Assembly: GCA_973895155.1 (NCBI GenBank)
Contig: OZ316895.1
Location: 11,554,858 to 11,618,857 of the forward strand
DNA from: Marsupella aquatica
Lineage: Eukaryota > Plantae > Marchantiophyta
Direction of reading: 5' to 3'
Length of the DNA: 64,000 nucleotides
Positions 23,137 through 62,102 of the stretch are shown here, in pieces. Below the pieces are notes generated by a model. That model saw only the letters and a program-made list of their open reading frames with translations. It did no database searches and was not told the origin of the DNA. The position numbers and the translations under genes were made by a program. Every line of letters begins with the position of its first letter. The first letter of the stretch is position 1.

Positions 23137-23965
23137 ATGAATCTACCCGGGTTCTCTTCTGCTCTTCAAGCCCCTTCCATGTCGTTCACATTTCCTTCCT
23201 ACAGTTCAATTCCTCCATCTACGTCTTCTTCAGTATCTAGATCCTACTCTTCATGCAATTCAAGGTGCCCCTTTTCTGCCTCTAGCACGCACGGATTCGG
23301 ATCTGCATCTCCCACAATTCAACCGACAGACAATGAAGGAAATAAATATGTCAGATCTCGTAGTTGTGGGCCTCTGAAGACGATGAGCATGAGATGTGCT
23401 GCCGTAGGAAGCGGAGGCGATGGGGAACCAGATGTGAGCAATGTGGCAGGAGGGGAATTGGTAGTCACCGGCATTGAAAACAAGGACAACCTTTTGGTTT
23501 CTGGTAGCCCAATTGTAATTGTAGAAGCCCCTGTAATGTTGAAAACAGCGGAGCCCATGCCAATGATGCGTCCCAACAGAGGTGTTTTAAAATCTGGAGA
23601 TGCTGGCAGGTAAACCTATAGCCGACATAGTTTGAAACCCTAATTTTATGAATTCTTCCTAAAGTCATTTCTCTCTCGCACTGTCTGTGTTGAGAACAAC
23701 AAATCGGGTTAAAGGCATGATATTTTTGACGTGCCTTGCTTCCCCTGTGGTGTGTATGACTAGGGATGACAGAGGCGGAATGGATTTGAGAAATTAAGTT
23801 CCCTTTTCGATCTGGAAAGTGGTTCATCAATTTGCTCGCAATTAACTTGAGTTTTCCCCTGTTTGCAGGGTCATTGACAGGAGACCGAAGGGTTTGTGGG
23901 CTGTTAGGTTTGCGGTGGGGGCATATCTTATCGAACGCAAGTGCTTCGAGCCTCTGGACGTCTAA
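23137..23965 (+). CDS. CRR42: Chloroplast-targeted DUF3148 / SipA-like protein (chlororespiratory reduction 42-like); exons 23137-23609 and 23869-23965
   Basis: Ser-rich N-terminal transit peptide. The spliced C-terminus IVIVEAPVMLKTAEPMPMMRPNRGVLKSGDAGRVIDRRPKGLWAVRFAVGAYLIERKCFEPLDV* matches the LKTAxPMPMLRP...G...RRP..WAVRF..G..LI signature; the GT-AG intron is in frame. Confidence 0.88.
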
Positions 23966-25270: not shown

Positions 25271-26733
25271 GAGACACTGATAAGGTACGATTCGCCAGTA
25301 AAATAGATTTTTCATAAAATAATTTAATTTTACTACAGGAAAAAAGCATATAAATTTTTTCATTTTCTCAATTTTCTAAGAAAAAACTAACTTAATCGAA
25401 TGTCTTTTAAATAAGTGCTCCACAGATTATTGATGATACTGCGGGGTGTTGAAAGAATGACGATCGAGCTCGCTTTGGTTTTCAATCTTTGGGTCTGGTC
25501 CTCCTGGACGAGACAGATATGGCTGTGAATTTCAGCTGTCCAGTTGATGGTAGAAGCTTTGTAGACCCAGGCAACAGTTGAATTTAAGATGCCCATTGCA
25601 CACTCTTTTGCGAACTGCCCTTGGCTGGTTTAGAATTGTAGTATTGAGCATTTCCGTGCATTCTGAGACGAGGATCGTCAAGGAGAGACAAACTGTAAAG
25701 TTAACTCGAATCCACATTTCAGAGTCAGAAAGATCATAAATTTTGAATTAGTAGCACCGCGGTCTAAGGGAATGATCATCTTCTCACTCTTACTCCAGAG
25801 AATCTGAGAGTCTCCCATAACTTACTGATTCAGAGATTTCAACTGTGGACCAGGTGCGCTTGCCTGTCTATCATTTTGTGCACGTAACCAACTCACACAG
25901 GTACGGTTTCAATTCGGACAGATTGTTAAGTTTCATCCGCGGATGGTCGTGGATCGAGTGCCGTTAAAAACTTGTCCTCTTGCCGCCGGATAACCTTAGC
26001 TTCTGCCAGTAAAGTTATCAGGTGAAATGATGCATACGACTATCTGTACGAAGATTCGGTCATAATCCAATCAAATGACAGGTTCCATATCCAGTCCACA
26101 TAATTGAGTTTTTGCTAAGATCTAAAGATAGATGCTGGCCATGGTTGCGGGCCCGGTTGCGGGCTGGACAGAGAGCTGTACAACCTACGCAGCGATCATG
26201 CAGACAATCCTAGGGAAATGTATCTGGGCTCGATCTGAGGTTGATGCAGGATTGGCAAAAAGCTCTGAAACGAACATGAGTGATCATCATAGATCTAGTT
26301 TAGTCTATCTATATAGGCATAATTGGTTACAATCTAACCCAACCCTCATGGCTCATGCTTTGAAAGTGCGCATGCCGCTGACTACTGTCGTCCTGAGCTT
26401 AGCAAGGTCAAGATAATATGTCCCAACATCCGTAGTGAAGCCCCATTCTCATAGCCTACGAGCTTCGCTGCCCAAAAGCAAAATTGAAGGCCCTCAGGCC
26501 GCTACGCGCCATGCCTCAATCTGCAATAAGGTTAACATCCCCAAAGTCTGTTTACCAAATTTATTTGCACAGATCGAGAATGATGTCCCTTTCCCGGGCA
26601 CAAAAAGTCAAGGGGGCTCCATTAAGTACAATGTAGATATACGGTGAGGGTCTCGAAGGTGGAGTTGGTGGAAACTGGAGTGGATCGAGCCGGGGGATCG
26701 AGGCACACCGTTGGAGGATCACCCCGAGGATCA

Positions 26734-27465
26734 CTAATGAGAATATATGGGAGTCTGAACTCGCTGAACCTCCATGGCAGGATGCCTCCGGAGTTGCGAG
26801 TTCTTGAAATTTGTTGCCGGTAACCAACATTTACTGAATGTCTCGTTCCAAGTTTCACTCCAGACTGATGCTATCGGGGATGCTATTTCACTTTCCCGGT
26901 CCCAATCATTACGTTGCAGAGATCTTTTACAAGTTTTTCGAGGTATCATGAAGTCTGCGCTTCGGGGTACGTAGGGGATGCCAGCGACCACAACGCCGGC
27001 AACAGCGATGGCAGCTTTCCAGCTATTTCCCGGCCTAGCGTCTGCGCTTCAGAGCTACTGGCCAGGGAGTTCATTTTCTCCAATCATGGCATGGAAATGA
27101 TTAGAGAGAAAGCAGCTTCGGCCAACAAAAAGTCCTACAGTAGGTAGTGTAATAACCTCTAGGTCTGTAGTAGCTACAGAGCGCGTCAGCGCTGAACTTT
27201 CGGCGAAACTGCATTTCATGTGGTAAAGCTTGAATCCCCATGACTCTCGACAGCCTACTATAGCACAGCCTTTCATCATGAAAAACTCGCCATTGAGTAC
27301 AATTCCTGGAGCCAGGTTGGTAGTATTGTCCGACCCTACTGAACAGATTCTATACGTGGTGCACTAGTCTCCAGCTTTATCCACGTATTCTCCAATATAT
27401 CTCTTGCACCCAACTAGTGGTAGTACTTGAACTTGAAAGTTGATGCTTGAGGGATCAATGTCCAC
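26734..27465 (-). pseudogene. Possible decayed coding segment of unknown family
   Basis: One minus-strand frame runs about 240 codons from an AG acceptor at about 27466 with only three internal stops (includes ORFs 27055-27279 and 26734-26991); no family recognised. Confidence 0.3.
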
Positions 27466-29718
27466 CTAGAATTGACATTGTGGGACTTTCGCAATCATGC
27501 TTTACTATCGTAGCTCTTCTTTTCTCGGTTTAAAGATTGTCGGATGTAACTGAAGTTTTTGTAGTTCAATTGAGTTAGTGCCATTTGTAATGCGTGACTG
27601 GATCGGGTCACTCTGAGTGATTGATATTCTCTCATCTCTTCGTTATGTATCGACAACAACTTCTCCTAAATCATTAGATCCTGCATATGACTTGTGTTGA
27701 TCCAACATGGGCCGACCCCAAAATCTTTCGGATCCATTTGCAAAAGATCATGAGAAGTGGAGGATGGCCTGGGTGAGGGTATCCTGGGATTGTCGTGGAA
27801 GTCACACAGAATAGAAATCATTCTAGCAGGTGGAACATTATTTGGTCTAATTTGTTGGTCCCAAGCTGTATACCGTAGATATGTCTGGACATTTCTGAAT
27901 TCGTTCAGTTAAACCACCACTGCCCATATATAAGGGGTACACGGGAGTGTCCAAAGACTTATCCATTTTTCCACATTCCACCCCTTCTTCCTTCTAATAG
28001 GGGTGGCACATTGCTCCACTATTTTGGGAAAAATTACTCTTAGTAGTGAAATTTGGATGCTACTGATAATCCCTAGCTGTTGATGGGGCAACTGTGATTT
28101 AGGGCCATCTTGCATGCGTGTGTCTTCAAAATATCGACCCTTTTAAGTGATCAAGTGACACCTTTGGAATCAGCCAGAGTTTCCTGCTTCACGCCCATCT
28201 TGAGCCAGTCCTCAGGGCTATACTAGCTCTTGTGGAGTTTCAAGGTGAGGTCAAATCCTTTGAAATCAGATAAAACAGACAGCAGTGACAACAAATGACA
28301 AAAAAACACAGACAAGGAAAGGACTTTGCACCTCACACATAGCACTCCACAAGAGAATACATCCAGCAATTTAGGGAGTGCAAAAGGCCAAATTTTAAAG
28401 ACCTCGAACATGCAAGACAACCCTTAATTATGTCTCGCAGAGTCTTAGGGGAGCTGTGATTTAAGTAGTAGCTTGTCAAGGCAACTTCTGAAAGTCGCTT
28501 TGTAGAACTATTTGAACGAGAATTGCAGAGCAACCATAGAAAGGGATGCAACTCAACTTGACGACCCAGAAATTTCTGACTCAAAAATTGCCTATCCGAC
28601 GAGTTGGGCTCTGTAAGCCTCCACATGAGACTGAGAGCCTCCTGCTGGCTTGAGAAACATTGGAGTCTCCGTGTTGATCTCTGGAAGCTGAGATTTTAGC
28701 TGTCTGAAACCGCATTGCTCGTTTTCGACAGAATCGTTGGGTGATGGCAAAATTTATCGTGGCAATCCTTCCCAGGGAGAAACAGCTGAATTGACTGGCT
28801 GGAGACAAATGGAGTTTTGCTTCCGCTTCGTCGTCGTCTGCTTCCATTGCTGTTGCGTTGATGGAGAACTGAAATCGATGCCTTCCCAGTATATTGGTGC
28901 TTGCAGGTAATTTCAATTTTGCTTCATGAACCTTAGGGGAGGGAATTATATAAGGTACTTTTTGAATGCAGAACAGTATAATAAATTAGGCTCCTATTCG
29001 CTGAGATGCGTCTCTGCTTCCAAGGCTCTGTCTCTTTGATTTTCTTCTGATCCCATGTCTTAGCCTCCGATTTTATCATGCTCTCTGTTCTAAATGCGTG
29101 GGACCTTTTCCTATATAAATTGAATTTTCATCTGTCTTTGTAAGGTTAACGAACTACTGGTCGATTTATAACATGAATGCACGCTCAAAGGGATGCTGAG
29201 CTCTCTGTCTAAGGTATGGTATCTCTAAGTTATATACAGTAAGCAACGTCCGTAAGCATTCTCCACTACTTCCTCCATATTTCCTCCTTGGCAATAACTA
29301 GAGTAGACGTTTTCCTCCCTATGTCCCCCCGAAATTCGACCTTTTCTATGCCTGACAACTTTGATAACATTATCGCCTTGAACAACGTCCTCTTCTATAT
29401 ATTCTGTCGCCATACAGTCGCTGTTAGCCTACCCTTTCCTTTCTTTCTTTCTTTCGTTCTTTCTTTTATAAGCTATCTGTCTTGCTTTCTTGCATTCCGG
29501 TCGTTCTGACGTCCCTGCTCCTTGGCAATAACCCTAGTACAGCATCCGTCTGGCCAGAGACGTCACGTCGGAATGTTGTTAGTGCAGGAGGCAATTTAGT
29601 GCTGCAGGCAAAGAGAGAGGAGCAAGACCTTGACGTCTTGTTGTGGGCGAGGGGAGAGGAGAAGAGGAGAGACTTCACATCGTGTTGTTGGAGGAGGAGA
29701 CGAAGTGTTGTGGGCAAA

Positions 29719-31237
29719 ATGGGAAGCGGAAGGGAGAGACCGATGACGAAGCAGGAGCCTCCTGTTGAAGAGAAGTGGTATCCACTCAAATTGGGGCAGA
29801 CTTGTTTCGACGATGCGACCTCTCGATTCTATTCGTTACGATGTATGTCTGTGAGCTTGGCTCCTCAGTTCTTTGTTTGGAGTTAGTGATGGGAAACCGA
29901 ATTGTGATGCGAAAGTCTGTAGGCTGCTGTTGATTTTTTTTTGGATGGGGAATTTTAGTGAATTTGCGTCTTGGAGTTTGATGAAATTGATACTGAAAAT
30001 TTTGGCCTTTTGTCGATGGTGCAGATGAGTTTAAACCGGCATCAATCGATACCAGCAGGCCAGGGTCCCTACACAGCAGCAGTGACAACAAAGTCACGGT
30101 GGAGTATTTCAATAACCAGGCCGGGAAACCTAAAATGGCATTCGAGGGCAATGTTGGCGATTATCAGGAATTGGACGCAGTGTTGCTCTTTGATGGACAG
30201 TCTTTTCGGCTGGAGCGCATGCACCGGGCTGTGAAGAGCCTCCGGCACATCAGAATGCCAGGAGAGTCGTCAGCCGGGGTCTCTAATGCAGCAAATGCCG
30301 CTCAGAAGGGAGCAGGAGCAGCAGAACCTGGGTCCCCACAAGATGGCAACAGCAACCAGGTTGAGAGAATCTCATCGGTGCAACCTGCCGAGAAGTCTGT
30401 TAAGAGACCTGCTGGCCCGGTGAGGAGCCGTTTTTCTTGCCTCAGTATCATTGGGAACCTCTTTATGGTGATTTTTTAGTTGATTCAACGCTGTCGAGAT
30501 TCATTCTTTCTTGGATAACTTTAATGTTGTGGGACGTTATGCTAAGGGGGGCGCTAATTATGGCTGTTGTATAGGCGGTACGAAGTGAAAAAATAGAGGC
30601 TTTAGTGGCTCCAGAGATAACCAAGCCTGATCCACCAGGTGAGCTCTTTTTCCTTCTGTCCCGTTGCGTCCTATTCCATTCTGTGAGCAGCTCGTGAAAC
30701 CCTCTTCGAGAACTGGATCTGTCGCTCTGAATTTTGAGGAATAAATTGGTGCTATCTACTCATGCAACAGGGAAAAATAAAGGCAATAAGACGACTCCCA
30801 TAGTTCCTAAAGGCCCTAAAGGCCAGAAGGCTTCAACCCCAGTACCTCCTACATCTCCTGTGGATCTAAAGAGGAAGAGGGAGGCTTCCCCTGTTATTGT
30901 CGAGATAGGTGACGAGGTAGAGGAGGCATCGCCATCAAAACAGGCCAATGTGGAGGACGAGCAGGTTGAAATAGAGGAAGTAGTGGAGGAAATCGAGGAG
31001 GTAAGTGATTATGAGGAGGTGGATATCAGTGACGATGAGGATGTAGACAAGACGGGTGTAGATCAAACTGCTGCAACCTTGAGAGCGCAGGTAGCTGCAG
31101 GGCTTTCAGAAGCGAAGGTGAGCTCGAGCTCCAGCAGCAGTGGGAGTGGGAGTTCTGGAAGTGGAAGTAGCAGTAGTGACAGTGGTAGTGATGAAGAAGA
31201 CACCGCAAGTTCTGCAGATGACGCGGATGATATTTAA
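29719..31237 (+). CDS. EAF: ELL-associated factor (EAF family, Pol II elongation); exons 29719-29842, 30025-30419, 30575-30638, 30771-31237
   Basis: EAF domain WYPLKLG...FYSLRYEFKPASID...VTVEYFNNQAGKPKMAFEG...DAVLLFDGQSFRLERMHRAVKSLRH; acidic/Ser-rich tail; all three introns are GT-AG and in frame. Confidence 0.92.
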
Positions 31238-32211
31238 GTCTGATCATCTCTACTTATGTTTCGAATTCACGAGTAGGTTTTCTATTGGGTTGCCTTTGCT
31301 TTGCTGGACTTTGCAAGGGGCAACCTCAGAGAAAAGCTGCTCCTGAATATGATACTTTGTCATTTCTTTTTACGGATACATTGATCAAGATTTGTATCGA
31401 GGGTCGTTTAAAGCAAGTTACTACTGGCTGTTCTCCGTCTCAAGAAATCCCTTAGATGTTACTTAGTCATACAGTAGGAGCGGTTCAACGTTTGGGGCTT
31501 CTGTATTGTAAAGTGGGGGCTTCTGTATTGTAAAGTGGCCACACATATGTACTGTAAAAACATAAGGCATGGAATGGAGCCAAAGACGACTTGATACAAT
31601 TAATGGAAGTAGAATGCATCAATAGAAGAATCTTGAGACGAAATTGTGGCAAAAATTAAGCGAGTCACTATGGAACACAGAGAAATGTGTATGAATCGAA
31701 ATGCCAATTTCCCTGTCCGTTCTCGAGTGTTGACCGTCCGTTGATCAAAACCATCAATTGGATTGATATCTTTGAGAGAGAAATTGTGAATAGTCCACCG
31801 TCAAAATCACCTGTGTCTCTGTTCGACAATCATCGACGACAGATCAATCTAGTTCTGAGAATTTTATCATAGGCAACCTGGTTGGATTATGTGATACAGT
31901 AGATTGAAGACTGCCTATCCAAAGACTCAATACACATTGATGCATCACGAGTGTGCTGCTGACGGACACTGGGACGAGTTGGATAAGACTATGCAATGGC
32001 ATCATTTCCTTTGCCGGAATCTGAATCCAGGACAAATTGTTCTGGTCTCATGCAAGGCAATGGCAGTGACCATGTGTCACTCAATGACTTCTTTGGGCAT
32101 CAATTAGATGACGGAGCTCGAATTTAATGTGCAATTGCAACACGCAATCTTGGCACGGCAGTAGAAAGGGAAGGGGTAATTTGAAGAGTTTTCCCAAGTC
32201 ACGATGTCTCT

Positions 32212-33252
32212 CTATTGGGTCTTAGCTACTATCTGAGGAAACGCCTCCACCAGTTTTCGCCAACTCCTTTCCGCCCTCGTTGCATGCTCCTCAGGCACCT
32301 GCGCACCCTTCTCTTCCAACGTCCTTGAGAAAAGCTCGAAGCTCACCCATCCTCTATACCCCAGCCCCTCAAACAACGCCCTGCAAATATCCAATATCGG
32401 CAGATACGCACCCCTCTCCTTCTCAAACGCGAAGACCCTGGCATTCCGACTCCAACTCAATCGAGTCGGCTGTGAAGCGTCATGCCAAGGATGCTCCGGC
32501 GAGATCGGCGGTGAGACTTGTTCCGCATCCTCCACCTGAATTATGAAAATCTTCTCCCTATCGACACACTCCACCATCCTCCTCAAGCTATCTGCCAGCG
32601 CTACCTCCCCGTCCTTCGTCTTTCCATCGGCTGATGCTGGGTCCCCATACAAACGTCCTGCGATGTTGAACGTATCAAAACAATATCCGAAATTCCACCG
32701 ATTGACCGCCGAGACGACTGCGTGCACCCCCTCCCACGTATCAATGTGGGTACCCCAGGCGAGATTCTCGTAAGCCAAGCAGATGGGAGGGTTCTCCTGC
32801 GCCGCGAGGTCTGCCAATTCAGTCATGTCCCGCACGATGGTCGTCAAGTCGGAAGTGCACTCGCTTGCAGGAAGCATGCTCGACGAGATAAGGACGACAC
32901 TGGTTCCGAGGACAGTGGCGAGTTGGAACCATAGTTTCGCTCTCTCGACTGCCTTCTCGTGCTCCGTGCGCGATAGGAGACCTTCGTATGGAGAGAAAGG
33001 CTGAAGGTCGACGATGGTTAAGGCCAAAGACTCCGCTAAAGTGCGGATCTGGTGCGCGGCAGCAAGGGGGTTCGTTGAGGTTGGGCCACCGGGGAGATGG
33101 GAAGCGAGGGCGTCAAGGTCTTCGAACATAAGCTCGATGCCGGTGAAGCCGTGCGAGGCTGCGGCTTCGAGCTTTGTTTTGAGGTCGTGGCCGGCGTAGT
33201 GGCGGCCGAGGGAGTGAGAGCATACTGCCGGAAGGCAGCAGCGGTCTGGCAT
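32212..33252 (-). CDS. qutC: Fungal-type 3-dehydroshikimate dehydratase (QutC/Qa-4-like; xylose-isomerase-like TIM barrel), intronless, 346 aa
   Basis: Intact ORF with PAVCSHSLGR..AGH.L..KL.AA...GF.GIELMFEDL, LQPF..YEGL, YENLAWGTHIDTW, DTFNIAGRLYGDP, IQVEDAE, RLSWSRNARVF, GYRGWVSFELF. These are motifs of ascomycete DHS dehydratases, including the E/D/Q/E metal ligands. Exact substrate is inferred from family. Confidence 0.85.
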   Translation of the reverse strand: MPDRCCLPAVCSHSLGRHYAGHDLKTKLEAAASHGFTGIELMFEDLDALASHLPGGPTSTNPLAAAHQIRTLAESLALTIVDLQPFSPYEGLLSRTEHEKAVERAKLWFQLATVLGTSVVLISSSMLPASECTSDLTTIVRDMTELADLAAQENPPICLAYENLAWGTHIDTWEGVHAVVSAVNRWNFGYCFDTFNIAGRLYGDPASADGKTKDGEVALADSLRRMVECVDREKIFIIQVEDAEQVSPPISPEHPWHDASQPTRLSWSRNARVFAFEKERGAYLPILDICRALFEGLGYRGWVSFELFSRTLEEKGAQVPEEHATRAERSWRKLVEAFPQIVAKTQ

Positions 33253-34074
33253 TGTGGCGAAATGTTCAGTTCGTGATGACTACAGCCTTCCTATCCATTT
33301 TTGCGAGCTTTGATATTGCTGTTCAGTCACCTGCTGAGGGAGGCAAGGATTGTACTTTCGCAATTATGTATTTGTCAGGTCTAGAACACTTGAACACTTG
33401 TGAATTCGAGAGTGGGGTGATTGATTTGACGGCCCGGCTGAGCAGGAATCAATCCATGTATCACACATGAGCTGAAGCTCGATCACAATGTGTATGAAAT
33501 AAATGGAGGCAATCTTTGCACCGAAGTCCGTCATAGAGACGTACACGTTGCTTGCATGCAGAGTGACAGGCGCTGATGTCTCCTGTTAGAAACTATGCCA
33601 CTTGGCAGATTGAGATGAATTCATGCGCAAATCGCGGTGCAGTGTCATGCCACATCAAGCGTCACACCAGAAGTGGTACGGTGAGTCGATATCTGAAGTC
33701 GAGCAAAATGGTGGAGTGAGTCGAGAGTGAAGCTCCCGGCACATACTCACGCCATTCATGACTGTAAACTCGTAACAATTCCAGCTTTTTTCTGAACGGT
33801 TTTTAGCGCAGGACAGAGTGATCGATCCGCATCGGTCCCGTTCCGATGTAACGACTTTCGGATGTATTCATCACACAAATTGTAGTAAAACTGAAACCCA
33901 GCCATAACAAAAACCTGCGAGTGACCATGACATTGTGGGTTGGACTGGCTATCCATAGCTCTTATCTTTGAGTCCATTTAAAGAACCAGGGTATATATAC
34001 TTCTAATCGATTAGAAACCGACCGTATTTCGTGTATATTTTCGATTCCAGAATTCTTTGAGGGAGGCTTAATTA

Positions 34075-34995
34075 CGTTGTAACAGTTGTGCCTTCATGTG
34101 CAAAATTCTCTTCCCTACCAATTGTCCGATTGATGTGAGAAAGATCCGTTTGAAGTGTATAGAGTTAAGCTACAAGTTTAAGTTCAGATGTGCCCCCTTC
34201 TGGACAGTGTTCACAGTTGACTTCATTTGCAGTAATTACTGAACCAACCGATATCAATGTGTCGAACAAACGAGACTATGAATTACAACGAGAGCGGGAC
34301 TCTGATCCAAATTAGTTGAGTTTCGTGGGCTTAGGGTAATAGGCAGGAGCTGAATAAAATCGAAGCCAGGACCTGATATATTTCAATCTCTTGATCCACT
34401 CGGCCAATTGCTTTCTATCACTCTAGAACATGACAGAAAGAGTCACTAACTCGAGGCCAAAGGGATCGGCGTTGTGTACAGAACTTCATTTTTGCAAGAA
34501 TTGATTTCGGATCCCGTGCGAAAGCAAAACTTAGATGACAATTTTCATAAATAATTTTCCACTGTTGGAATCCTGCATTAATTACTCTAGAAATGTTCCT
34601 GACCATTCTGCTCGACTTATAAGTGGATTGAGTTCTATCGTCTGCTCAATTGAAATTCCAATCCGGATGAAATTCTTAGCAAGATCTAGTCCATGGACAA
34701 TATTGTAGAGCAAAATGGACCTTAAATTCACGCCTGTAGACGCAGTGGTTTCCATTATCCTCTAGTTGACGTGTGCTGATCGAAGGACTGCTTTGCCTCC
34801 AAAAATAAAAAGAAAGCGACTTATAAGACAATTTAAGGCATTGAAACTCATTAATCTAGCATCCCTTAACGTACCTCTTTTGGCGAGAGCATCAAGTAAA
34901 GGATTATAGTGTGCCAACCCCCTCAGCGTTAACAAGAGGGCCCGTTCCATCTACACAAAGTCAGGCACGGGTGAACAAACAAAACTGATCACGAA
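34075..34995 (-). pseudogene. Truncated and internally deleted GH1 beta-glucosidase relic
   Basis: Exon-5 copy 34950-34875 (GTGPLVNAEG/LAHYNPLLDALAKR) with a 1-bp insertion; 3' tip of exon 7 (VYRREF, about 34724-34742); introns homologous to 40660-40780 and 39150-39730. Confidence 0.85.
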
Positions 34996-36417
34996 AAAGG
35001 GGAAAAAAAAAATGGTCTTTGGGTTGACTGTTGCGGTGGGGGCAGTTTAGCCATGTACGGTTCCTTAAAAGGATGTGCCTGACAAAAGCGTAAATTAATA
35101 ATCTAGTGGCCTCTCCATAGCTTGGGTTTCCCAGATTTTTTGTTTATTTTTCACTCTTACTTTATATGGTTTTGGACCTTTCGGGTCATGGCCTTTTGTT
35201 CCCTTTGCACTTCTACATTCATTTTTCCATAGGCCCTAATTACATGTCTTGATTGTTTTAGATGCACTTCTTTTCAGTTTCTGGCTAGCGTACTTTTCAA
35301 GACACAATGACACAAGGCTGCAATGACAACCATGCATTGCACTGGCATTTTGACAACTGTGGGCTAGCTGATGAGAAATGAGTTAAATTGCTATAGATTC
35401 CCATACCATGATCATAGGAAGACTCAAAAGGGGTATCAGGGAGTGGCAAAGTTTACATAACGGGACCATAGATGAGTGGAGTGATGCAGTGCACTCACAA
35501 CCCAGCGCTTGCCAAAGATGTGCCGACACAATCTGTACTTGTTTTGTCCTGAGGAGAGGCATAGCAGTTCTCTGCATTTCATCAAAAATGCTCAAGGACA
35601 TTTCCTCTTCTACAAGTCATGGGCCACTATTGTTTTTACATCACATAAACGTGTCAAACATCAGGACGTAATTTAGCGGAAAAGTCACCTATTCCATACC
35701 GGCCACATGTTTGAGTAATTTTGTGCTGGCCACTACATCCATCATGCGAATTTATAATTTTTGTCTTTGCCCTCTTGTTCCATCAACTGAGGGGTTTGTT
35801 TCGAGGGACGGAGAAATGTTTTATCAAGACTCTCCACCACTGTTTACTGCTCAAAGAGTGGCGCACATTTTGTCACATATTTTAAGACAGGTCGATAAGC
35901 AATTTCTTGCACAAAAGTCACAATGATGTTCGTAATTTATGTAGACACTTACGGTAGCTCGCTGGCCACACAGAATAGAATTTTTCATATCTCTCTAATT
36001 CAAGACATTAGACACCTGGCCACATGGTAGAGAAATTCATTTCTGAGAAATTTGAGAAACTTTTCAACGATGAGGATGCAATAGTAATCAAGCTCACAAA
36101 ACATGCGTGATACTATTACACTGTGAATAAATGATTGAATGATCATCAAAACATTCATATCATATATATCTCATCGTGCGCTCCAGGAAATCAATGAATG
36201 AACGAATGATCATCAAGACATTTTTCTCACCTACCGCTCCAGTAATTCGGTTACATCGTTGCATAACGAAATTACAGCGAATGTCGCTGGCTCTGGCATA
36301 TCGTCAAACAATCAATCAATGTGTGCCAGCTTCTGAACTCAAGGATGGCACACTTAATTTCCACAATGGGCATTGCATATAGGGTTCTAACCCATCAAAA
36401 GTAAATATTCAATCGGC

Positions 36418-36562
36418 TCATGCGTCTTGAGTGTCCCTGTTGAAGGACTTGCGAAAGCCACCGGCAGGAATGCTTTGGGTAGCGCTTCACATCCCCAATA
36501 CTGCGTTACATGCAATGTCACACCAATCCAAAGTGAAGGTAATTAAGTGACTAAACATAGTT
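36418..36562 (-). pseudogene. Degenerate tandem duplicate of the terminal GH1 exon
   Basis: Minus strand reads VKRYPKHSCRWLSQVLQQGH, paralleling VKRYPRDSARWFSHVLQRGH in the true last exon immediately upstream. Confidence 0.75.
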
Positions 36563-36572
36563 GCCAATTTGC

Positions 36573-42977
<6,405 letters not shown>

Positions 42978-45900
42978 GGTTTGAATTCGACTTCCAGCTT
43001 CCCTTTGTGACGCAGCACCGCCAAAACTCGTGTAAATCTGACAATGTCCGCACTTTCAGAAAATCTAGAAGGGAAGCACATTAGTCAGCCTCTGTATCGT
43101 AACATTGGCAAGAACGGTACAATGCAAACGAGTACGGATATGCCTATTTGGCTAAGTCGCTCCCTCGCTACGTTTGAAATAACCAGTTATTAGACTACCT
43201 CCTGCGAGGGCAGATATCATCAATCCTGGAATTTCTGTGAGATACCCATCAGAATTTTGCTCAACAGCAATGAATCCGGGACACTGTTACCATTCGCCGC
43301 TTCATCTCTAGCAAGCAAACTCACTCATCTAAAAGCATCGGACAGTGACAGCTAATACTGTACAATCCTCCAAATCCTACTAAAACATTGGGGATCTCTA
43401 CGCATTCAGCCTCTAGACGGAGGAACTCAAACATCACATATGCTAATTCAAACCATTGTGTAGCTTTCGGAACGGATGAAATCTGCAATAGAGGGCGAAG
43501 TAAAATTTCACTCAAACAGGCTCACATTGTCTCCAACGCTACAGCCTACACACCGCTACTGTGCCATTACAGGAATCGTACCAGAGGCTCTTTCGACAGA
43601 CTCTGTTTCCCTTCACGGCTTCACGGCTCCTGAACTGCATTGGCAACGAACTGGCATGCAAGCCGAGAATTCCATCCAGGTCGAGCACCGGCAGATAAGT
43701 ATTCCGGGTTGATGTCGATATATAAAACTTGTGTGGTTCTTCCCATTTGCAACAAGTTGATTTTACACTTGACTGCTTGGAAAGCGGATTTCCTGGAACC
43801 ACAGCACAGCCCAGCCGAGCACCGGATCCGAGCACCGAGCACTGGGCCCCGCCCCTCCTCGGAGACAGAATGAGGTAAATGTCTCAATTTCAACTACAAC
43901 TCAGCATAATTAATACGGCATTTGGCTCCCGGTCACCCGGAGTGCTCAGTGCACTTTGGGTCCCACTTTTTGCTAACAGTCATCCGGCAGCTCCGCCCCT
44001 GCGCGGCGTCAGATTCCAATTCACGCCTTCTCACTTTCTCAGAGTGATCCTAGCTGCAGAACCTACGTGTTCAACACAGTGTCGTTCAAATAGCTTCCGG
44101 CCATCCGCCAACTGCATCACTGCGGTGGATCTGTCATAAAGACACAGCTATGGGCTTCGTGACATAGATATTCTCATATTCCACTGTAAGGACGCGCGTG
44201 GCAAGCTCGGGGCGAGGAGATCGAGAACTGTATGACTGTAAAAATATCGTCGATCTGCTAACTGCGGAGTCCCGGTGCCAGGATGGTTATAATCCTCAGC
44301 ACTCTCAGCTCCACGCGTGAGTAATGCTCGGGACGATGCACAATTCGTCTCGTGCAGCCATGGCGTGCAGGGTTAATTAAGCAAACAAGCACCGCACACA
44401 GGTGTGTAGTAAGTCTGCGCCATCACCGCCATGCCTAAATAATTGCCTGCGCTCGGAGTTTGTGTATTGTGCAGCCGTGCAGGACTGCAGGGCATCATTA
44501 GGAACCTTTTTTCACTTTTTTGTATTGAATGATCGGAAGGATTTGGGAGGATTTGGGGCGCAGTTCATTTTCTTCCCTCCGACAAAGAAGGTGCTTTGTG
44601 CCAGACATAATTATGCAGTCGTCCACGTGCCCAACTGGACTGTGGGTAACTGCATTCCGTGGATAACTGCGGGCCAGTCATGTGGATCCCCTAATATTAC
44701 CGGAACCTTTTGTCGTTGCCAGAAAATGTTCATAAGTGGATTTGGGCCTTCACTATATAAGTGCATGCTGTAAGTGTGCAAATGCATTTATCGGTTAGTT
44801 AGTGAAAGAGATCACACAAAATATTCCTGTTGATCATCAGAGGTAATAAGTTTCAAGGATTACATATGGTATTTACATGCACTTATCCAGTTGGTAGAGG
44901 GTCGTCCCATGATGAGGGTTTAGAGAAAGACGAGTCAAGGGTGTAGGACCTGGTTACATATGGTCTTTATCACAGGCAATTATTCAGTTGATAAAGAGTT
45001 GTCTCCGGGTTGTCTCATGATCAGGGTTTAGGGGTTTAGGTTTAAGAGGACTCTCAAACACGATGAGGTTTTGCTTATTGGTACAGTAATGTATACATAG
45101 CCTAGAGATATACTTAGTGGACCTCCAAATGCCTAACAATGTCTTTTGGGTACAATTTGATGGATCTTAACTCACTAGTTATGGACACAAGTTAGTGACT
45201 ACAAAACTCTCTAGTCCATAAATTGTTGCCATAAGGATGTCTTAATGTCAATACCATTAGTCACCATAGAGGCAGGGCCAGTGACTGAAATTTCAAAGAA
45301 ATTTACATAACCTTGTGAAAAATTATGACAGTTTCTTTCTTTATAATAAAATGTTCTCGTACGTAACTTTGAGACTCCTTATTAAATAGTATATTGAGTT
45401 CACTCTACATCAAGACTACCATTTTGATGTGATAGTCTTCTGAATATGCAAGGCTCCAAAAGTAAAGAATCTGACAAAGAGAATGAATAAAAAAAAAATT
45501 ACCTTTAGAGTGAAGAAAGAGTGACAGTGTTTTTCCAAGCAAGAAAAGGAAACTGTCAAATATGCACAAGAATCAATTCACAAGAATCAAGTCACCATCC
45601 ATGCATATAAATTGCTCCTTATCTCCCTCTATCATTCTTTACCACTATAATACCTATCCCCAATTGTCCCTTTACAAACTATAAAAAAACCCAATCTTGA
45701 CCCTTCATCAAAACATTGTTTTTTAACATGGTCAAATATATAATTGCAAACCATCTAGAATATATATTTTCCAAAACTGTACTTTAATTAGCCTGCCCGT
45801 ACTTTAATTAGCCTGCCCGCACCTACCCAGGCAAGATAAAAAACTTAATATTTATATTTAAATTGGAAATTTGGGAAAACAGCTTGCCCGACAACTTGGA

Positions 45901-52522: not shown

Positions 52523-55500
52523 CGTAATCTAGGTCGACCTTATGGGTTACCGGTGGGTAGAGTGATTAGGGCATGATCGTTATTTACGTTATATCCAGCC
52601 CTGACACGTAAGGAATCCCGTTATTCATGCACCTGACACAACTGGGGTCCATAATGGGCCCTCCTGAATGTCATGACTCACTCAGTCCTGACACAACTAA
52701 GGCACATAAGTTAGGGCCCTGACACAAGAATATGAGGCGCTCCTTTACAAAATTTGTATATTCCTTTCATTTTTTTTGTTTCACACCACACAATGTGTTT
52801 CCGTGAAAATATTACACTTTATAGAATGTCATTTTTTGTTTCACACCATACAATGTTTCCGTGGAAACAATACACTTTATAGAATAAAAGAAAATATTGC
52901 ACTTTATTCAGCGGGGATCCTGAATGATCGACCCTGAAAACTTGATACTGAAAATTCAGCAGGGGATGGGAACTCATCAACTCTGAAAGCTTACTGCTTA
53001 GAATTCAACTTTGAATGGGCCTGTGATAGCTTGAAAAGCTTTAAGTACAATCCAATGATCTTCGATGAGTATATTCGGTCCTCAACTATTGGTGTAACTA
53101 CACTATCATACTTGTATTCTCTGTCTAAATTCCTAGCTAGAAGCTGCACTAAATCTAACTCACTTTTCGGCCACTGCATCACTTGGGGACTCCTTCTCTT
53201 TGTCCTTGGCTTGAACAATCTTGATAGTTAGGTTGCAATTCTGGAACGAATTGTTAGCCAAGCTGTTTGCAATTGAGACGGTTGATGCATCCCCTTTCAG
53301 ATACGTCAGTTGGCTATTCCCTGATTTGACAGACTTTCCTTGTCCCAATCAATCAAATCCAAATCATTCAGGAAGGCTTTGCTCTTCTCAAGAATATCAC
53401 TTGCCACCAACACATCACCCTTCCCATCAGGGATATTCTATGCCACAGACAATACACTGATGTCAAATGTTACCTGAACCATGAGCCATACATTACATCA
53501 AAGACCAAACTGAACAGTGAAGCACATAAACAGTGTTGTACCTGTTATGCTCTGGGAGCTAATGCCAACTACAATGTACATATTTCCCGCACCCTCTCAA
53601 CTAGAGGTGTCACAACATTGGAGTTCCCTGTGGATTCGGCAGCTATCTCACTTGTCCTCCCAATGAGAGGAACCATTGTATTCGGAACTGATGAAGAGCA
53701 AGTAGGTCTTGCACCCTCTCCAATAGTCAAGCATGATGTCAATGGATTCAAACTCGCTGAAGATCCCACAACCTGCTCCTCTACAAATTTATTGGACATT
53801 TCAAGCAAGGTAGACTTATAACTCAACATGGGATTTGACGCAACAAGAGTGGCAGCTTCCATCTTTACTGCTTTAGTTCAATCGTACCTCAAGTACACGC
53901 TCTTAGTATGATGCCCCGAAAAAAGCATTCCAACTTCATCTAGGACTCCCCTTGCTGCCATGCGTGTGATCAGAGTCGCTCGTCCAGACCGATTGCTGAA
54001 AAGATCTGTAGGCAAACCAACTAACTTTAGCATGTTCACAAGCCATCGACTGGTTCTCTCCTTCTAAACTTTATGTACCTTATTGTACCAGATATTGCTC
54101 ACTGGATTAATGATTGAACCCATAAACAAGTCAGGCTTTGCCCCTTCCTCAAGCGGAGGCATGTGTGCAGGTATTGCTTCACTGTAAGCACAAAATCAGC
54201 CTCAAAGCTGTGAAAAACGTTTTGAAACTGCTCTTCATTGTATCGCTCGAGAGTATAGGAGTTGTTCTTGCTCTGCCTCTCCTCAAAACTGCAGACCATC
54301 ACCTTGAACAGATCCATTAGTAAAATAGAGACCTCATGTTAACCAAATTCAAAGTAAAACTAAATGAGTCAAAAGCAATCAAATCTTTATGCTCACCGAA
54401 CATAGTCTTGCCCTTCCTTGTCTTGCCAGATATTGACATCATCACAATGCAGATCCTACAACTCTTGTCCTCCGCAAATTCCCAGCCTCACCAGGAAGAA
54501 AAATGCTAGGCGCTTCTGACAGCCAAGGGAGAAGTTAATTTGATGATCCATGTCAATTAGAATTGCATTCTCCATCTCCTCTGTAAGGGTCGCAACCTGT
54601 AAACAGAAGAAATTGTTAGGTTCAGACCGACAGCAGAAACTACTGATGCAAAGATTCATGTCTTACAACAACTGACCTTCTTTGTCTTCTTATTCACTCC
54701 ATCCTTCACACTCTTGCGAATGGCAGCTTTCAGAACCAAACGAGTTTTTGTAAAACTTGCATGCTTGCAGATGTTAAAATCTCTATCAACAAGGTTCCCT
54801 TCTCCTTTCAAAGCCCTCATCTCACTTGCATGTCTAATGACACAGTTCGAAGTATTCATCAGGCCCATTAGCGTGGATGAAGGGTACTGTTGGCCATCAA
54901 GTTTCACAACTCGAGAAAAAACATTGCTCAGAAGCTCATCTAACATCACCAAAGACAAATCTCCAAGTGGAATACTCATATCCCACTGTAATGCCTCCCG
55001 TAGTAGATTAGCTCGATTCGTAGCCCACCGATCATTGTGCTCAGAGCCCCGCTTCTCCTTCCCTTTCCTCGCATCAAACAACAACGGGTCAGCGACAACT
55101 CTAAATCCTTGAACCTGTACTTCGACCTGCATTGGCTCCCCAGGCGGCACAACATTCGCCTCATTATGAGGCACGATTGCATCACATGAGGATTCTTCGA
55201 TCGAAGGGCATTCATCAACAAAAGAGCACTGTCCGACAGATGTTGTCTCATCAAAAACACTCGACAATTCAGATCCGGAAAAGTCATAGGGTTGGCTAAG
55301 CTCATTCAAGAACAGGATGTCGAGGTCTCCTCCAACTTCCTCTCCCTCTACAAACATCAACTCTCCATCACTGCAATCTCCCATCCTTTGACCACGAACT
55401 ACTTTGCAACCAGGCAACATTGAGCGCACAGAGTTAGTGATAGCAGAAAATGACCCCACTACTTCGACACACTGACCCATACCCTAAAAGTCATGGATCA

Positions 55501-56378: not shown

Positions 56379-58078
56379 CACATTAACTCACATCTAGGCC
56401 GTCCGTTACCACCCCATACCCGGGGCACCCCGTTACAGGCCAGTAAGGGCCACCTAGAGGTGAGTTATCCTACACTAACCTCTACACTGGAGTTCCTTTT
56501 GGTAACTATACTGGCTATGCAAGCCAGTGCAAATCTTGGAGGGAATTCTTTCACTCCCTCCGGATTGATGAATACAGCAAGAGAGCTCAGAAATCTGCGG
56601 CAATGTACCCAAGAGGATGCAGACCGTCATTGCACGCAGCAGCAGGGTTTTTGAGAACGAGGGAGTCTCTACAATGCGGCAAAATTGCTCGGTCAAATGC
56701 AGCTGGAATGCTCAGTAACAAGTTTTAAGAACTGTTCATATTGTTTGGAAATTGGAAGTGCTTCAAGAAGGCTTTAATTAAGAGAGAGCCGGAGAAGCAG
56801 AATGTACTTGAGAACCTGGAGGAGGCGTGAGGAGGCATCCTCTGTTGCATTTGACACTAAAATTAAAACTTTGGACACCTCTAAATGAAAGCCTTCAAGA
56901 AGGCGGTAATCAATGAGACCTTTAGCAAGGAGAACCCCTCCTGGTAGGCCTTTACTTGCACTTCGAGAGTTCCAAAGAGGTTTACCTTACACATTAAAAC
57001 GGGACGGTATAATTGCCGCCCTCCGACTTCAGGGCTCCAAACATTCAATAATCACTCACAATTTGCCAATGTTGGTGGAAGCAGGCAGGGGATGGGCCAA
57101 TTGTCAAGGATGGTTTGCCTTACATGTGTTTACGACATTTACCCCTCACAGAAAATTGAACATCTCTTTTCATGAACTTGCTACTCACGGTTCGAGTGAA
57201 CAGAACACCGAATGAAAATTCTCGAAGGTCCACAAAAAGAGAACTTATAATACCAAAGGGATGGACGTCCTCAACACTCCGAACAGACATGTTATGCTTT
57301 TACTTTCAGCACATCGGCCAGGTGTTGTGTACCAAAAACAAGGACTTGGTGTATTGAAAAAACATAACCCAAAAACCTGTTGTGTTCAATCCTCGGAGAG
57401 TATCGTCGTGCACCAAATCAATTCTATCCATCACCAAGGATGAAGTCCTGAGAAAGCAACTTGTGTTGTATTTATCACCGAAATGGGTATGTCCGGGAGC
57501 AAATCTATTACCAGAGTGGTATGTGCGGAAGACAATAGCCTCTTTTTCCTCGGGAAGCAGAAATTTCGGTGTCTAAAACCGGACAACACAAATATATCTT
57601 CTGCGGGTCTTCACAAACATCAACTGGACAGGGTACTGTTCAAAGATTGACTCACATTTCAATCATATTCACGCGTTTTGGTAATACTTTTGCACAAAAG
57701 CGGATGTTTGTAATCTAGATTGACATTCAGATTCCTGACCACATCGAAACATTCATTTCTCGTAACTGAGAAGCTTTCTTCAACAATGAGGTACAAATAA
57801 TCAAGCTCAACTTAAACATGCGTAATCGACGACAGTGAATGAATGAATGGATGAATGAATAATGAATGAATATACATCATCTACACAATGATACATCTCG
57901 TATCGCTAGACATTACGTTGGATGCTATAACTAATATTAAGTCTAATTTCATTGAATGGAATATCGTCCTCCGCTGGACACTATTTACAGTAACTATTTG
58001 TGAAAGCGTCTGAAGGATTTCACATTTGAATTTCACTATGGCCTTTGCACGCCATTAAAATAGTTAATATCTATCTGG

Positions 58079-61000
58079 TCATGAGTCTGAAATTCTCCGT
58101 TGAAGAACCTGCGAAAACCATCGTGCAGAGTCCTTTGGGTAGCGCTTCAAATTGTCATTGTGGTCTATGTAGACGAGTCCAAAATTTGAGTCAAATCCAC
58201 GATCCCACTCCAAATTGTCGGTGAGTGACCAGGCAAAGTAGCCACGTACGTTTACCCCGTCCCTGCAATTCAATCAACAAATTTTATAGGTATCCAACTT
58301 CGGCCGATAAATTAATCATAAGAACATATCCACGCAGGACCTACATATGACCAGTCCTACACATTGCAAGTTGCCTTCACCACAGAAGAAATTCCAGGTC
58401 ATTTACGACTCCATATAGTGAAGTGTCTGTGACGTTTCTTACCTGACAGCTTCAAGTAGTGCAGATAAATAATTGTCGTAAAATTCGATCCTTACTGTGT
58501 CATGCAATGAATCCTCCATGGACAAAGAGAACTTAGAATCCATCCCTACAATTAACGTAACAGTCCGACAGAAATGTCAATTTCAATAAGACATGCTCGT
58601 TATGACACAGTCAAATGAGTTAAAGAAATGTTTGGCTATGTAATCATTCTTTCATGGACATGTTTCACCCAGCTACAAATTGGAAAACGATGAACTCTTC
58701 GGAACATTGGGATCAAGTCCATCTTCAGTTCAGCAAGAAACGTCAGGGTGATCAGTGTGGATACCATCTTCAGTGACAAACAGGGGTGTCTCGTATCGTT
58801 GCCAGGTCCATTTGAGAAGGTTGCGTATTCCCCAGGGGACCACCACCAACCAAGGAGAAGCCGCCTGCAAACACAAACAACTACAAAGTTAGTCCAATAT
58901 ACATAGAAATGGAGAAACATTATTTGCTAGAAAGACGCGTGGTAGAGTCGGGCACGGTACGGTTATAACTCAATGATACCGAACGGTCCCTCGCTAACAT
59001 TCTGAACCAAATAGCTTTTGGAAAAGCTTTCGAGACAATATGCTTTCAACCCCAACAAGCTGTGAAGGGACGGACTTCATAGTCCGAAATGATCGCAACT
59101 TGGAGTGGATCTTCCTTCGTTCAGTCCTTCCATATACTATCCAAGATTGAAAGGATGACTATAACAATTTAAGTTGACAGAAAGACATGAAACAGAAAAG
59201 TTGATGGAAATGCCAGTACCCGTGGTCCAATTTCGATGCCATCCTTTGACGCTGCGCAACAAAGAACCTTAAGAGTCAAAACTGTCTGTTAAATCAATGA
59301 GCACACCACCAAAAATGAACTCGCTAAACACTGATATGCTATCAGTACGAAACGCAAAACCTGAACTGAGTACCCAACAACGAGCACTCTTTAGCTCCCG
59401 TGGACCATAGAGGTATTGATTCATTCCTGTTTCCCCAACAGGAGAAGTTCTATCTACATGGGTTGCCAGAAGAGTTCCCACATCAAATTTGGATTCGAAA
59501 GCGGTTTAGGGGATCAAATGTCGTATGAAACGCACCACAACAAATCCATCTAACAGATTGTGAGAGTCGCAAAGCATGGGATGCCAGAGTACCTGGCCCG
59601 AAATTCTTTCAATTAACTAATATTAGATATTCATCGTTAAAGGGTACAGATCGATGAATTACTTAAGGTGCTGATATGTTGATCAAGTGCCGGAGTCGGT
59701 TCCTCATTGGGGGAAGGACCAGGTCCAGATGTGACCCAACGAGAAGTATAATAATTGAGCCCAATAAAATCCAGCGATCCTTTGATGAGGGAAACTTGCT
59801 CGTCGGAAAATGTTGGGAGCCGAAGACCCACAAGCTCTCGCATTATGACTGGATAATCACCAAAGATCAAGGGATCCAGAAACCTGCAAAGAGTTAAGCA
59901 GTGACATTTTATTTGGTGTCAAGCCAAGTGAAGTGACGATTAAATGCTCCCAGCTTGTCAAATGACCCTCAATTTGTTCAATTGATAAGCTGACTTGAAA
60001 TTTTTTGAAAATTGAAAGATTTCGAAGTAGGCAAGAAAACGAAAGACAGTCGACTTTCGTTCAAAGTTTACACTCATGAATGAAACAAATTGTCTCCAAT
60101 CCAACGTAGAGGTTCTCCAGGTTCACCGGGACCACTTACCAGCCAAGTTGGAAGATGCCATTTCTGAGGGCTGCTTTAGTGTCTTCTACCGAATCGGTTA
60201 GAGGTTCTCCCCATATGCAATCCACTGTAAATCCGATCTCTCCTTTCTGCTTTGTCTGCAATATCGAGTCCCAACAAACATCGGATTCTTGTCATTTTAA
60301 ACTGATTTGTTGAATTACGGAAGTAGTATCATTGTGAGGACAATACTCGAGAACATGTCAGTCCCTAAGTTGTAGCAGTTCTATGTTATGAAATTTATGA
60401 AATGGATAAATTCTTCTTCAATACCAATTATCCAATTGATGACGGCAAAGATCAGTCTGATGTACATATTTAAAGCTACAGATTTAGTTTTGATATCCCG
60501 GTTCAGTGTATGTAAACGAACCCGAAATTCACACTATGAGTGGACCCCCCACCATGTGGTCCAAGTTGGTCCCGTATATAAGTCAAGCAAAGGGACGCTC
60601 ACACCTACATACTGAGGAGGGAGTCGCGGACTCCAACTTAGAGATTCGTGGGCTAATTGATGCAGACGCACTACTATCGTAAAGCAGACATGAATGGAAT
60701 CGATGGAAGCCAGGATTTGAAATCTTTCGTACTGGACTTAGACTGGACAGATTGATTCTAACCGGTCTACGCAATAAGACAGAAAGTCACCAACTTAGTT
60801 TCTTGGATGAGCATTGCAGAGAAACTTCATCGCTGCAAGTAATGATCTCACCAATACCACGATTTTTATGCATTATCTTTCACCATTGGGAGTTGTCTTT
60901 TTTTTGTGTGTGTGTGTGGGGGGGGGGGGGGTGTTAAACTAAAATTTTCTAGTGTGATTCTACTTGGAACTTTAGTAGTTCATTGGGTTTTCTCCAATGC

Positions 61001-62102
61001 TCTTGAATTTCTTAGTAAAACCAAGTTCCTAGACGATTTTGTAGAGCACACTGTACCTGAAATTCACGCCTGTAGACGTCCACAGCTGCTGCGTGAGACA
61101 GGAGTACATGATGGGCAGCAATGTACGGTGCAGTGGATGGGTTTGAAGTAATCCCCGGCGGAACGTCACCGCCAGTCCCATAGCCCTGTAGAAACTGCTG
61201 TGGTTCATTAAACGTCGTCCAAAGCGTTACTCGATCTCCAAATGCTTCGAAGCAAACTTTTGCATACGCTGCAAAGTCGACCCTGAATTGAACACCCACC
61301 CCCTCCAAAGAATTAGGATCGTTGACGGGGAACCCCGGCTCTGTCCGAGCCGCTGTTTTCGAGTATTCTGAAATAGACTGTAATATTAACTCATACCTTC
61401 AATGTAATACCCCTGGCTTACATGGGTAGACAGTATGCCAGGTGGTGCGTTTGCTAAATTGAAAGAACGATAGTAAATTACGTTTCTTGCACTGTTCAGA
61501 TATCTCTTCTCATTGTTCATGTCTACGTTTTCGGAGAAAATGTCATCCGAATACTTCATATTCCTAGTCTAATTCAGAGCAAACGATAGAATACTGCTTT
61601 AGCCTAGTATGGTACAATTTAAACCTAACATAGTCCTCAGCTTTGCTTAGTCTGGTTCTCATATGCTAAGAAGAGAAACTGAAATGCACTTACACAATCT
61701 TGGGGCTCAACCACCCTTCATAGGAGTCCTGGAGGCCTTGCGGAAGGTCCCAATGATACAACGTCACGAATGGCTTCAAACCTTCAAGACATAACAAATG
61801 TAGCAAACTTAAGAAATATGTCGGCCAAAAGCCAAGGGATGTTAGTAGTAAACAGAACGAAGTGGCTCTCCTGCTGTATTTACCATAACCCATTATCATG
61901 GTAGAATCTTCAATATTCCACAGTTATCAAATTATTTTCTACTTAGACGTGTCCTGAAAGACTGTTTTGCGTTCATAAAATTGAAAAGAATCATGCAAAG
62001 TGACTAATCTACCATCCCTTCACATACCTCTTTTGATGACAGCGTCAATTACGCGATTGTAGTATGCAACGCCCTCAGCGTTAACAACAGGGCCCGTCCC
62101 AT
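58079..62102 (-). CDS. BGLU: Second GH1 beta-glucosidase (GH1-B), exons 5-13; exons 1-4 not found in the window
   Basis: [66 protein letters not shown]...FGLVYID; same exon boundaries and homologous introns as GH1-A; stop at 58079-58081. Confidence 0.88.

Follow-up and report, generated by a model that had tools for sequence, protein, structure and literature searches.

A probable ascomycete-derived gene for a predicted cytosolic 3-dehydroshikimate dehydratase in the liverwort Marsupella aquatica

An intact QutC/Qa-4-like gene was identified in a 64,000-nucleotide stretch of Marsupella aquatica contig OZ316895.1 (assembly GCA_973895155.1, positions 11,554,858 to 11,618,857), which is referred to as the window and whose position numbers are used throughout. 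The gene was probably acquired from an ascomycete before its host and Calypogeia split, and its product is predicted to act in the cytosol, converting 3-dehydroshikimate to protocatechuate. Judging from the comparative analysis, dehydratase activity of this copy is likely.

32212..33252, minus strand: dehydroshikimate dehydratase gene (QutC/Qa-4-like, fungal-type), single exon, 346 aa (ORF, PF01261, AlphaFold model, homologues)

The first-pass annotation described a single-exon, undisrupted, GC-richer ORF of 346 aa, and this description was borne out. The ORF runs from ATG to TAG with 0 stops or frameshifts, is longer than any other of the window's 24 ATG ORFs of at least 100 aa, and has a GC content of 0.569 compared with 0.430 for the window, ranking at the top of 1260 sliding 1041-base segments. 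Its GC3 is 0.66, compared with 0.48 in host exon stretches (2916 bases pooled); the composition of the fungal loci examined ranges from 0.44 to 0.85, and therefore composition names no donor. The single-exon structure is no sign of retro-insertion, since stops are likewise absent from the matching region in 21 of the 22 fungal loci examined. Neither another copy nor a remnant of the dehydratase gene was found in the window, and the surroundings of the ORF show no notable target-site or terminal repeats, the short pairs there all looking like chance. The listed sequence motifs were found in the stated form, apart from the first one, which reads SLGRHYAGH (SLGR-HY-AGH).

The same annotation placed the ORF between intron-containing plant genes, tail-to-tail with EAF, which was confirmed by Pfam and tblastn, with a GH1 gene on the other side.

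29743..31237, plus strand: host EAF gene, intron-split, tail-to-tail with the ORF (PF09816; exons by tblastn)
36576..43055, minus strand: host glycoside hydrolase family 1 (GH1) gene, many introns, upstream neighbor (six PF00232 stretches in order)
23137..23613, plus strand: CRR42-like gene (chloroplast NDH assembly family), plant marker 9 kb off (PF11347, E 2.6e-11)

EAF and the dehydratase ORF are spaced by 974 bases. EAF exon 2 is 82% identical to that of Calypogeia fissa, 64% to Marchantia polymorpha, and 62% to Riccia sorocarpa, followed by ferns, Sphagnum, and seed plants; by these identities the EAF neighbor is a liverwort gene, and it marks the host as a leafy liverwort. A protein kinase gene is also present in the window, farther from the ORF than EAF and GH1. 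Fungal cluster genes (quinate dehydrogenase, permease, regulators) were not found by Pfam in the 276 stop-free stretches scanned, out of 429 of at least 55 codons each that were counted in the window. Spanning of the EAF-ORF-GH1 junctions had been proposed as a check, and one 14,436-base short-read contig of run X1, which may be the sample behind the window's own assembly, matches 31174-40000 with 0 differences and reaches from the last 64 coding bases of EAF through the ORF to GH1 exons. Runs X3 and X5, which carry a second organism label and come from two other studies, contain diverged copies of the ORF, including pieces matching 31969-33269 with 20 other letters, 31691-32519 with 32, and 32547-32856 with one; none of the pieces listed extends from the ORF into a plant exon.

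Several other features of the locus were observed. A second GH1 gene at about 58050-62120 (minus strand) shows 65-85% DNA likeness to the first over several pieces, by which the two minus-strand GH1 genes are a tandem duplication. A functional link between GH1 and the dehydratase, with protocatechuate freed from glucosides, was considered and set aside, adjacency being its sole ground. A dispersed repeat lies at 34104-34995, between the upstream region of the ORF and GH1, and its copies (39162-39755, 40660-40904, 60993-61078, and 61997-62120) sit in GH1 introns. The form present in X3 and X5 skips 34045-36074 (2028 bases), so that this segment, which begins about 0.8 kb from the dehydratase gene on its upstream side, resembles an insertion polymorphism. 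The summed contig depth of X1, which is not a measure of copy number, is about 17-59 over 26000-31200, with many diverged contigs, and flat at 16-18 over 31600-36300; there may be a second, diverged EAF-side copy with no matching dehydratase copy. A 274-aa ORF at 54656-55480 (minus strand) has no Pfam match and is possibly transposon-derived.

The ORF protein matches PF01261 (E 6.7e-26), and the NCBIfam QuiC model (NF042435) matches its N-terminal part with 83.9 bits against a cut-off of 1200. Its sole PDB sequence match is 5HMQ, which is QuiC1 (PMC9324987, PMC7442255). An AlphaFold model built from 138 sequences reached a pLDDT of 97.3 and replaced a 6-sequence model (pLDDT 52.8). The best fold match of this model is again 5HMQ (E 3.9e-19, TM 0.71-0.72 by query length), and the fold is a single xylose-isomerase-type (TIM) barrel without an HPPD-like domain. 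The putative metal site is made up of the following residues, the Glu/Asp/Glu ligands being common to AsbF, QsuB, and Qa-4 (PMC9324987).

32767..32769, minus strand: Glu162, metal ligand (QuiC1/QsuB Glu134); 5HMQ alignment and residue list of PMC7442255; in 163/163 non-liverwort rows
32674..32676, minus strand: Asp193, metal ligand (Asp165); 5HMQ alignment and PMC7442255 list; 163/163 rows
32536..32538, minus strand: Gln239 (Gln191); equivalence deduced from where the motif lies; not within the stretch that HMMER aligned
32335..32337, minus strand: Glu306, metal ligand (Glu239); weak second stretch of the 5HMQ alignment and PMC7442255 list; 163/163 rows

In full, QuiC1/QsuB E134, L136, D165, Q191, S206, R210, and E239 correspond to E162, L164, D193, Q239, S268, R272, and E306 of the Marsupella protein. 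The place of QuiC1 H168 is taken by Asn196, which is Asn in all 163 non-liverwort fungal-type rows, and QuiC1 R64 is not kept, that place being variable in fungal-type rows. Among the columns conserved in at least 95% of the 163 non-liverwort rows, the Marsupella protein keeps 78 of 88, and the ten changed ones include V241E, P123S, F126M, G150A, and L192F. Glu241 lies two residues past Gln239, beside the metal site, where the other rows have Val (156), Ala (6), or Ile (1); V241E is unique to the Marsupella protein, while P123S, F126M, G150A, and L192F are common to it and Calypogeia B, with A keeping the fungal residue. The proposed identity as a fungal QutC/Qa-4-type dehydratase is therefore supported by sequence and structural model, in view of the PF01261 match, the 5HMQ fold, the metal ligands, and the fungal relatives.

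The closest relatives are five gene models of Calypogeia fissa, a leafy liverwort of the Jungermanniales, of which the four long ones are 73-78% identical to the Marsupella protein.

CAM6089254 and CAM6089256, Calypogeia fissa, 34.3-Mb contig: 73-75% identity
CAM6095670, Calypogeia fissa, 20.2-Mb contig: 73-75% identity
CAM6089619, Calypogeia fissa, 34.3-Mb contig: 77-78% identity over aligned columns
CAM6096033, Calypogeia fissa, 20.2-Mb contig: partial model

The A and B models are spaced by 365 accession numbers on the 34.3-Mb contig and by 363 on the 20.2-Mb contig, suggesting that the two contigs are collinear duplicated chromosomes. Calypogeia fissa is probably polyploid. Microsynteny of EAF and the dehydratase with Calypogeia was not supported, the EAF cluster being on a 24.1-Mb contig and not on the 34.3-Mb one. 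The A models P0001 and P0122 carry a C-terminal extension of ~70 residues (about 345-414; Kyte-Doolittle 1.5 over 19 residues), possibly a membrane anchor or a gene-model error, and P0121, the tandem copy, ends differently, in a tail that looks frame-shifted. The Marsupella protein and four Calypogeia models have two adjacent cysteines at residues 5-6 (33232-33252 region), conceivable from their sequence as a lipid-attachment site.

Next after the Calypogeia models comes protein P0003 (61% identity), then ascomycete proteins at about 50-53%, while two named basidiomycete rows are at 34-35% and bacterial relatives (one pattern scan, 27 loci) at 27-32%. Of 891 homologue matches the best 120 were listed, and 55 of these were organism-named: two Calypogeia, one Quercus suber, and 52 fungi, all presumably Pezizomycotina. 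A profile search with the liverwort clade gave no further plant among the best 120 of 1113 matches. Marchantia, Riccia, mosses (Sphagnum), ferns, and seed plants, though in the database, gave no match among the best 120 of either search; within that scope the enzyme is outside the standard land-plant gene set, as had been claimed, with only Calypogeia comparable. The Quercus suber protein P0004 (POF13296.1), annotated as an oak dehydroshikimate dehydratase and containing a duplicated domain, was considered as a second plant case and rejected; with 58-65% identity to fungal-type rows and 43% to the Marsupella protein, it is likely fungal contamination by its sequence. Among 17 long-flanked fungal metagenome loci (of 52 fetched, with 90 of 134 listed ORFs scanned), ten have, within 6 kb, a gene with a shikimate/quinate dehydrogenase domain and seven do not, and several have QutA/QutR-like regulators. 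The nearest fungal relatives thus include true quinate-cluster genes.

Phylogenetic trees were built with FastTree (211 rows), IQ-TREE under LG+G4 (66 rows), and LG+C20 (38 rows). For FastTree, 210 of 271 rows were kept, with matches below 85% coverage and P0004 left out; the partial P0186 was left out of the trees, and 28 rows were dropped for the LG+C20 tree. In all trees the Marsupella protein, Calypogeia, and P0003 form a clade (100 in FastTree, 100/100 under LG+G4, 100/99 under LG+C20), in which the Marsupella protein is sister to Calypogeia B (100/99). Because of this position within the joint clade, the A/B duplication is, on the trees, older than the split of the host and Calypogeia. 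Grouping with fungal-type rather than bacterial sequences was recovered with bacterial outgroups at 100/100 and 100/99. The stem of the liverwort clade is long (0.33-0.49) and the end branch of the Marsupella protein is short (0.10, LG+G4). With a bacterial root, LG+G4 placed the liverwort clade inside a 44-row Pezizomycotina-type group (96/92) and rejected a constraint holding all 51 fungal-type rows together with liverworts outside (p-AU 0.0005). With LG+C20, the backbone of the fungal part collapses, and the constraint, here on 30 rows, was not rejected (p-AU 0.184). The nesting within Ascomycota that had been expected of a maximum-likelihood phylogeny was thus obtained under LG+G4 but not forced under LG+C20. 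On these sequences, the fungal affinity of the liverwort clade is firm and its nesting inside fungi is probable, with no donor class nameable. Horizontal transfer from a fungus to liverworts is very probable, as first proposed; however, it was not an event of one genome, being old, common to Calypogeia, and followed by duplication. According to previous work, Calypogeia fissa and other Jungermanniales are hosts of ascomycete symbionts (PMC7062687).

Such associations might also bring a fungal contaminant, such as a rhizoid endophyte, into a plant assembly by mis-assembly. Ascomycetes live in leafy liverworts (PMC7062687), the GC3 of the ORF is above that of host exons (0.66 vs 0.48), and the Quercus suber match looks like such a case. 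However, the X1 contig runs without a difference from the EAF end through the ORF into GH1 exons, the 276 stop-free stretches scanned include no fungal neighbors, orthologues and paralogues lie on chromosome-scale Calypogeia contigs, and no fungal protein exceeds about 53% over the full length. Contamination is very unlikely, to the point of being hardly credible, because the X1 contig is joined by the diverged X3/X5 copies and the five Calypogeia models. An ancient vertical eukaryotic gene lost in all other plants, or a non-ascomycete donor, is also highly improbable: vertical descent would require the gene to have been lost from all other plant lineages represented, Marchantia, Riccia, mosses, ferns, and seed plants gave no match among the best 120 of either search, ascomycetes are closer than basidiomycetes (about 50-53% vs 34-35%), and the corresponding topology was rejected under LG+G4. 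The LG+C20 AU test, in contrast, is compatible with liverworts as sister to all fungal rows (p-AU 0.184), the stem is long (0.33-0.49), and P0003 (61%) could be from a fungus close to the donor.

Two further alternatives accept the transfer and differ on function. The B copy may have changed its substrate or lost most of its dehydratase activity while A keeps the ancestral reaction, which we consider unlikely. The four substitutions P123S, F126M, G150A, and L192F, common to the Marsupella protein and Calypogeia B and not found in A, together with V241E in the Marsupella protein alone, would fit such a shift; one Calypogeia B model is short by ~40 residues and the other is scrambled, by decay or bad gene calling. 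However, all metal ligands and S268/R272 are retained, the end branch is short (0.10), and a 310-base ORF piece of X5 differs by one letter, compared with 32-62 in 460-880 for longer, non-coding-rich pieces, as purifying selection would give, in one small piece and not as a dN/dS estimate. That the dehydratase is active but silent, or that an undetected upstream exon routes it to the plastid or elsewhere in the cell, is quite improbable. Engineered QsuB does work from plastids, the pathway's location (PMC6680230); against such routing, the ORF protein starts in alignment at the same Met as four Calypogeia models and fungal proteins, its acidic N-terminus is unlike a transit peptide, and its C-terminus has no -SKL-like end.

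The absence of a transit peptide had been noticed from the start and held up on inspection, the first 50 residues having 10% Ser+Thr and 7 acidic residues, compared with 42% and 0 in the plastid-type CRR42-like ORF. A peroxisomal -SKL-like C-terminus is likewise absent from the ORF protein. Because the start Met is aligned, the N-terminus acidic, and the peroxisomal tail missing, a cytosolic location is taken as the default from the sequence. Plant shikimate enzymes are plastidial, and cytosolic isoforms and a cytosolic dehydroshikimate pool are debated (PMC8945279). Since HCT, which is conserved in Marchantia, needs cytosolic shikimate (PMC8945279) and shikimate dehydrogenases can run in reverse (PMC4892741), a cytosolic dehydroshikimate pool in liverworts is plausible.

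We therefore favor a retained, active dehydratase of ascomycete origin, for which the following course is proposed. An ascomycete gene would have been gained before the Marsupella-type host and Calypogeia separated, and the dehydratase gene alone, without the quinate cluster, would have been retained at the locus. Duplication would then have produced subfamily A (three Calypogeia models, with the C-terminal extension) and subfamily B (the Marsupella protein and two Calypogeia models). In the predicted reaction, a divalent metal held by E162, D193, Q239, and E306 would bind the substrate, and water would be eliminated, as in Qa-4, QsuB, and QuiC1, to give an aromatic catechol acid. The substrate would be dehydroshikimate from cytosolic shikimate/quinate oxidation or from plastid leakage, and the product would be retained as a phenolic (defence, antioxidant, metal binding) and not burnt for carbon as in fungi. 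We infer that an enzyme with a high Km would serve as an overflow valve and not as a competitor of aromatic amino-acid synthesis; Qa-4 was reported to be Mg2+-preferring, with a Km of about 0.6 mM and a kcat of about 220 per second (PMC9324987). Protocatechuate is present in mosses too (PMC13467868), and therefore the compound alone would not point to a dehydratase gene.

Fungal transfers into liverworts are frequent and well known, and a bryophyte species has on average 229 transferred gene families (PMC12513842), so an event of this kind is not surprising. The literature search found no paper linking dehydroshikimate dehydratase to liverworts. A survey of 123 bryophyte genomes does not mention the enzyme in its main text, and the 1,809 transferred families of that survey may include it (PMC12513842). 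If active, the Marsupella enzyme would be the first dehydroshikimate dehydratase native to a plant that our searches found, would lead from a core pathway to a catechol acid in a single step that bypasses phenylalanine, and would offer a plant-adapted enzyme for protocatechuate or low-lignin engineering. The gene may also serve as a marker by which gene flow from ascomycetes to leafy liverworts can be dated, and as a probe for cytosolic dehydroshikimate. A broader reading, offered as a tentative speculation, is that leafy liverworts evolved the engineers' protocatechuate shunt from a fungal gene, in the cytosol and with two subfamilies doing different jobs, turning a catabolic enzyme into a first committed phenolic step that reports on the disputed cytosolic shikimate pool.

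Like Qa-4 of Neurospora crassa and QutC, the Marsupella protein is a single barrel of ~345 aa with the same three acidic metal ligands (PMC9324987, PMC7442255). It is ~50% identical to ascomycete members, a value that does not come from direct alignment with the characterised Qa-4, and shares with the 163/163 fungal-type rows the Asn at the place of QuiC1 His168. It differs in lying in a plant chromosome, outside a quinate cluster, and in having 17 clade-specific residues. Compared with QuiC1 of Pseudomonas putida (5HMQ) and QsuB of Corynebacterium glutamicum, the seven active-site equivalents are retained, whereas the C-terminal HPPD-like domain is absent, the identity is 24%, and R64 and H168 are not kept. 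Engineering work with QsuB reportedly also exists for switchgrass, poplar, and maize. In Arabidopsis, plastid-targeted QsuB was engineered to drain dehydroshikimate to protocatechuate, the same reaction as predicted here, and led to conjugated protocatechuate and less lignin (PMC6680230). The Marsupella gene differs in being natural, fungal-type, without a transit peptide, and in a liverwort. The fungus-derived bryophyte genes RDS1, YANB, EUPF, and FBT lectin (PMC12513842) and NAS (PMC12454661) are also microbial metabolic genes and resemble the present one in their few or no introns, plant-gene flanks, and patchy distribution across bryophytes, whereas the dehydratase would tap an intermediate of a primary pathway directly.
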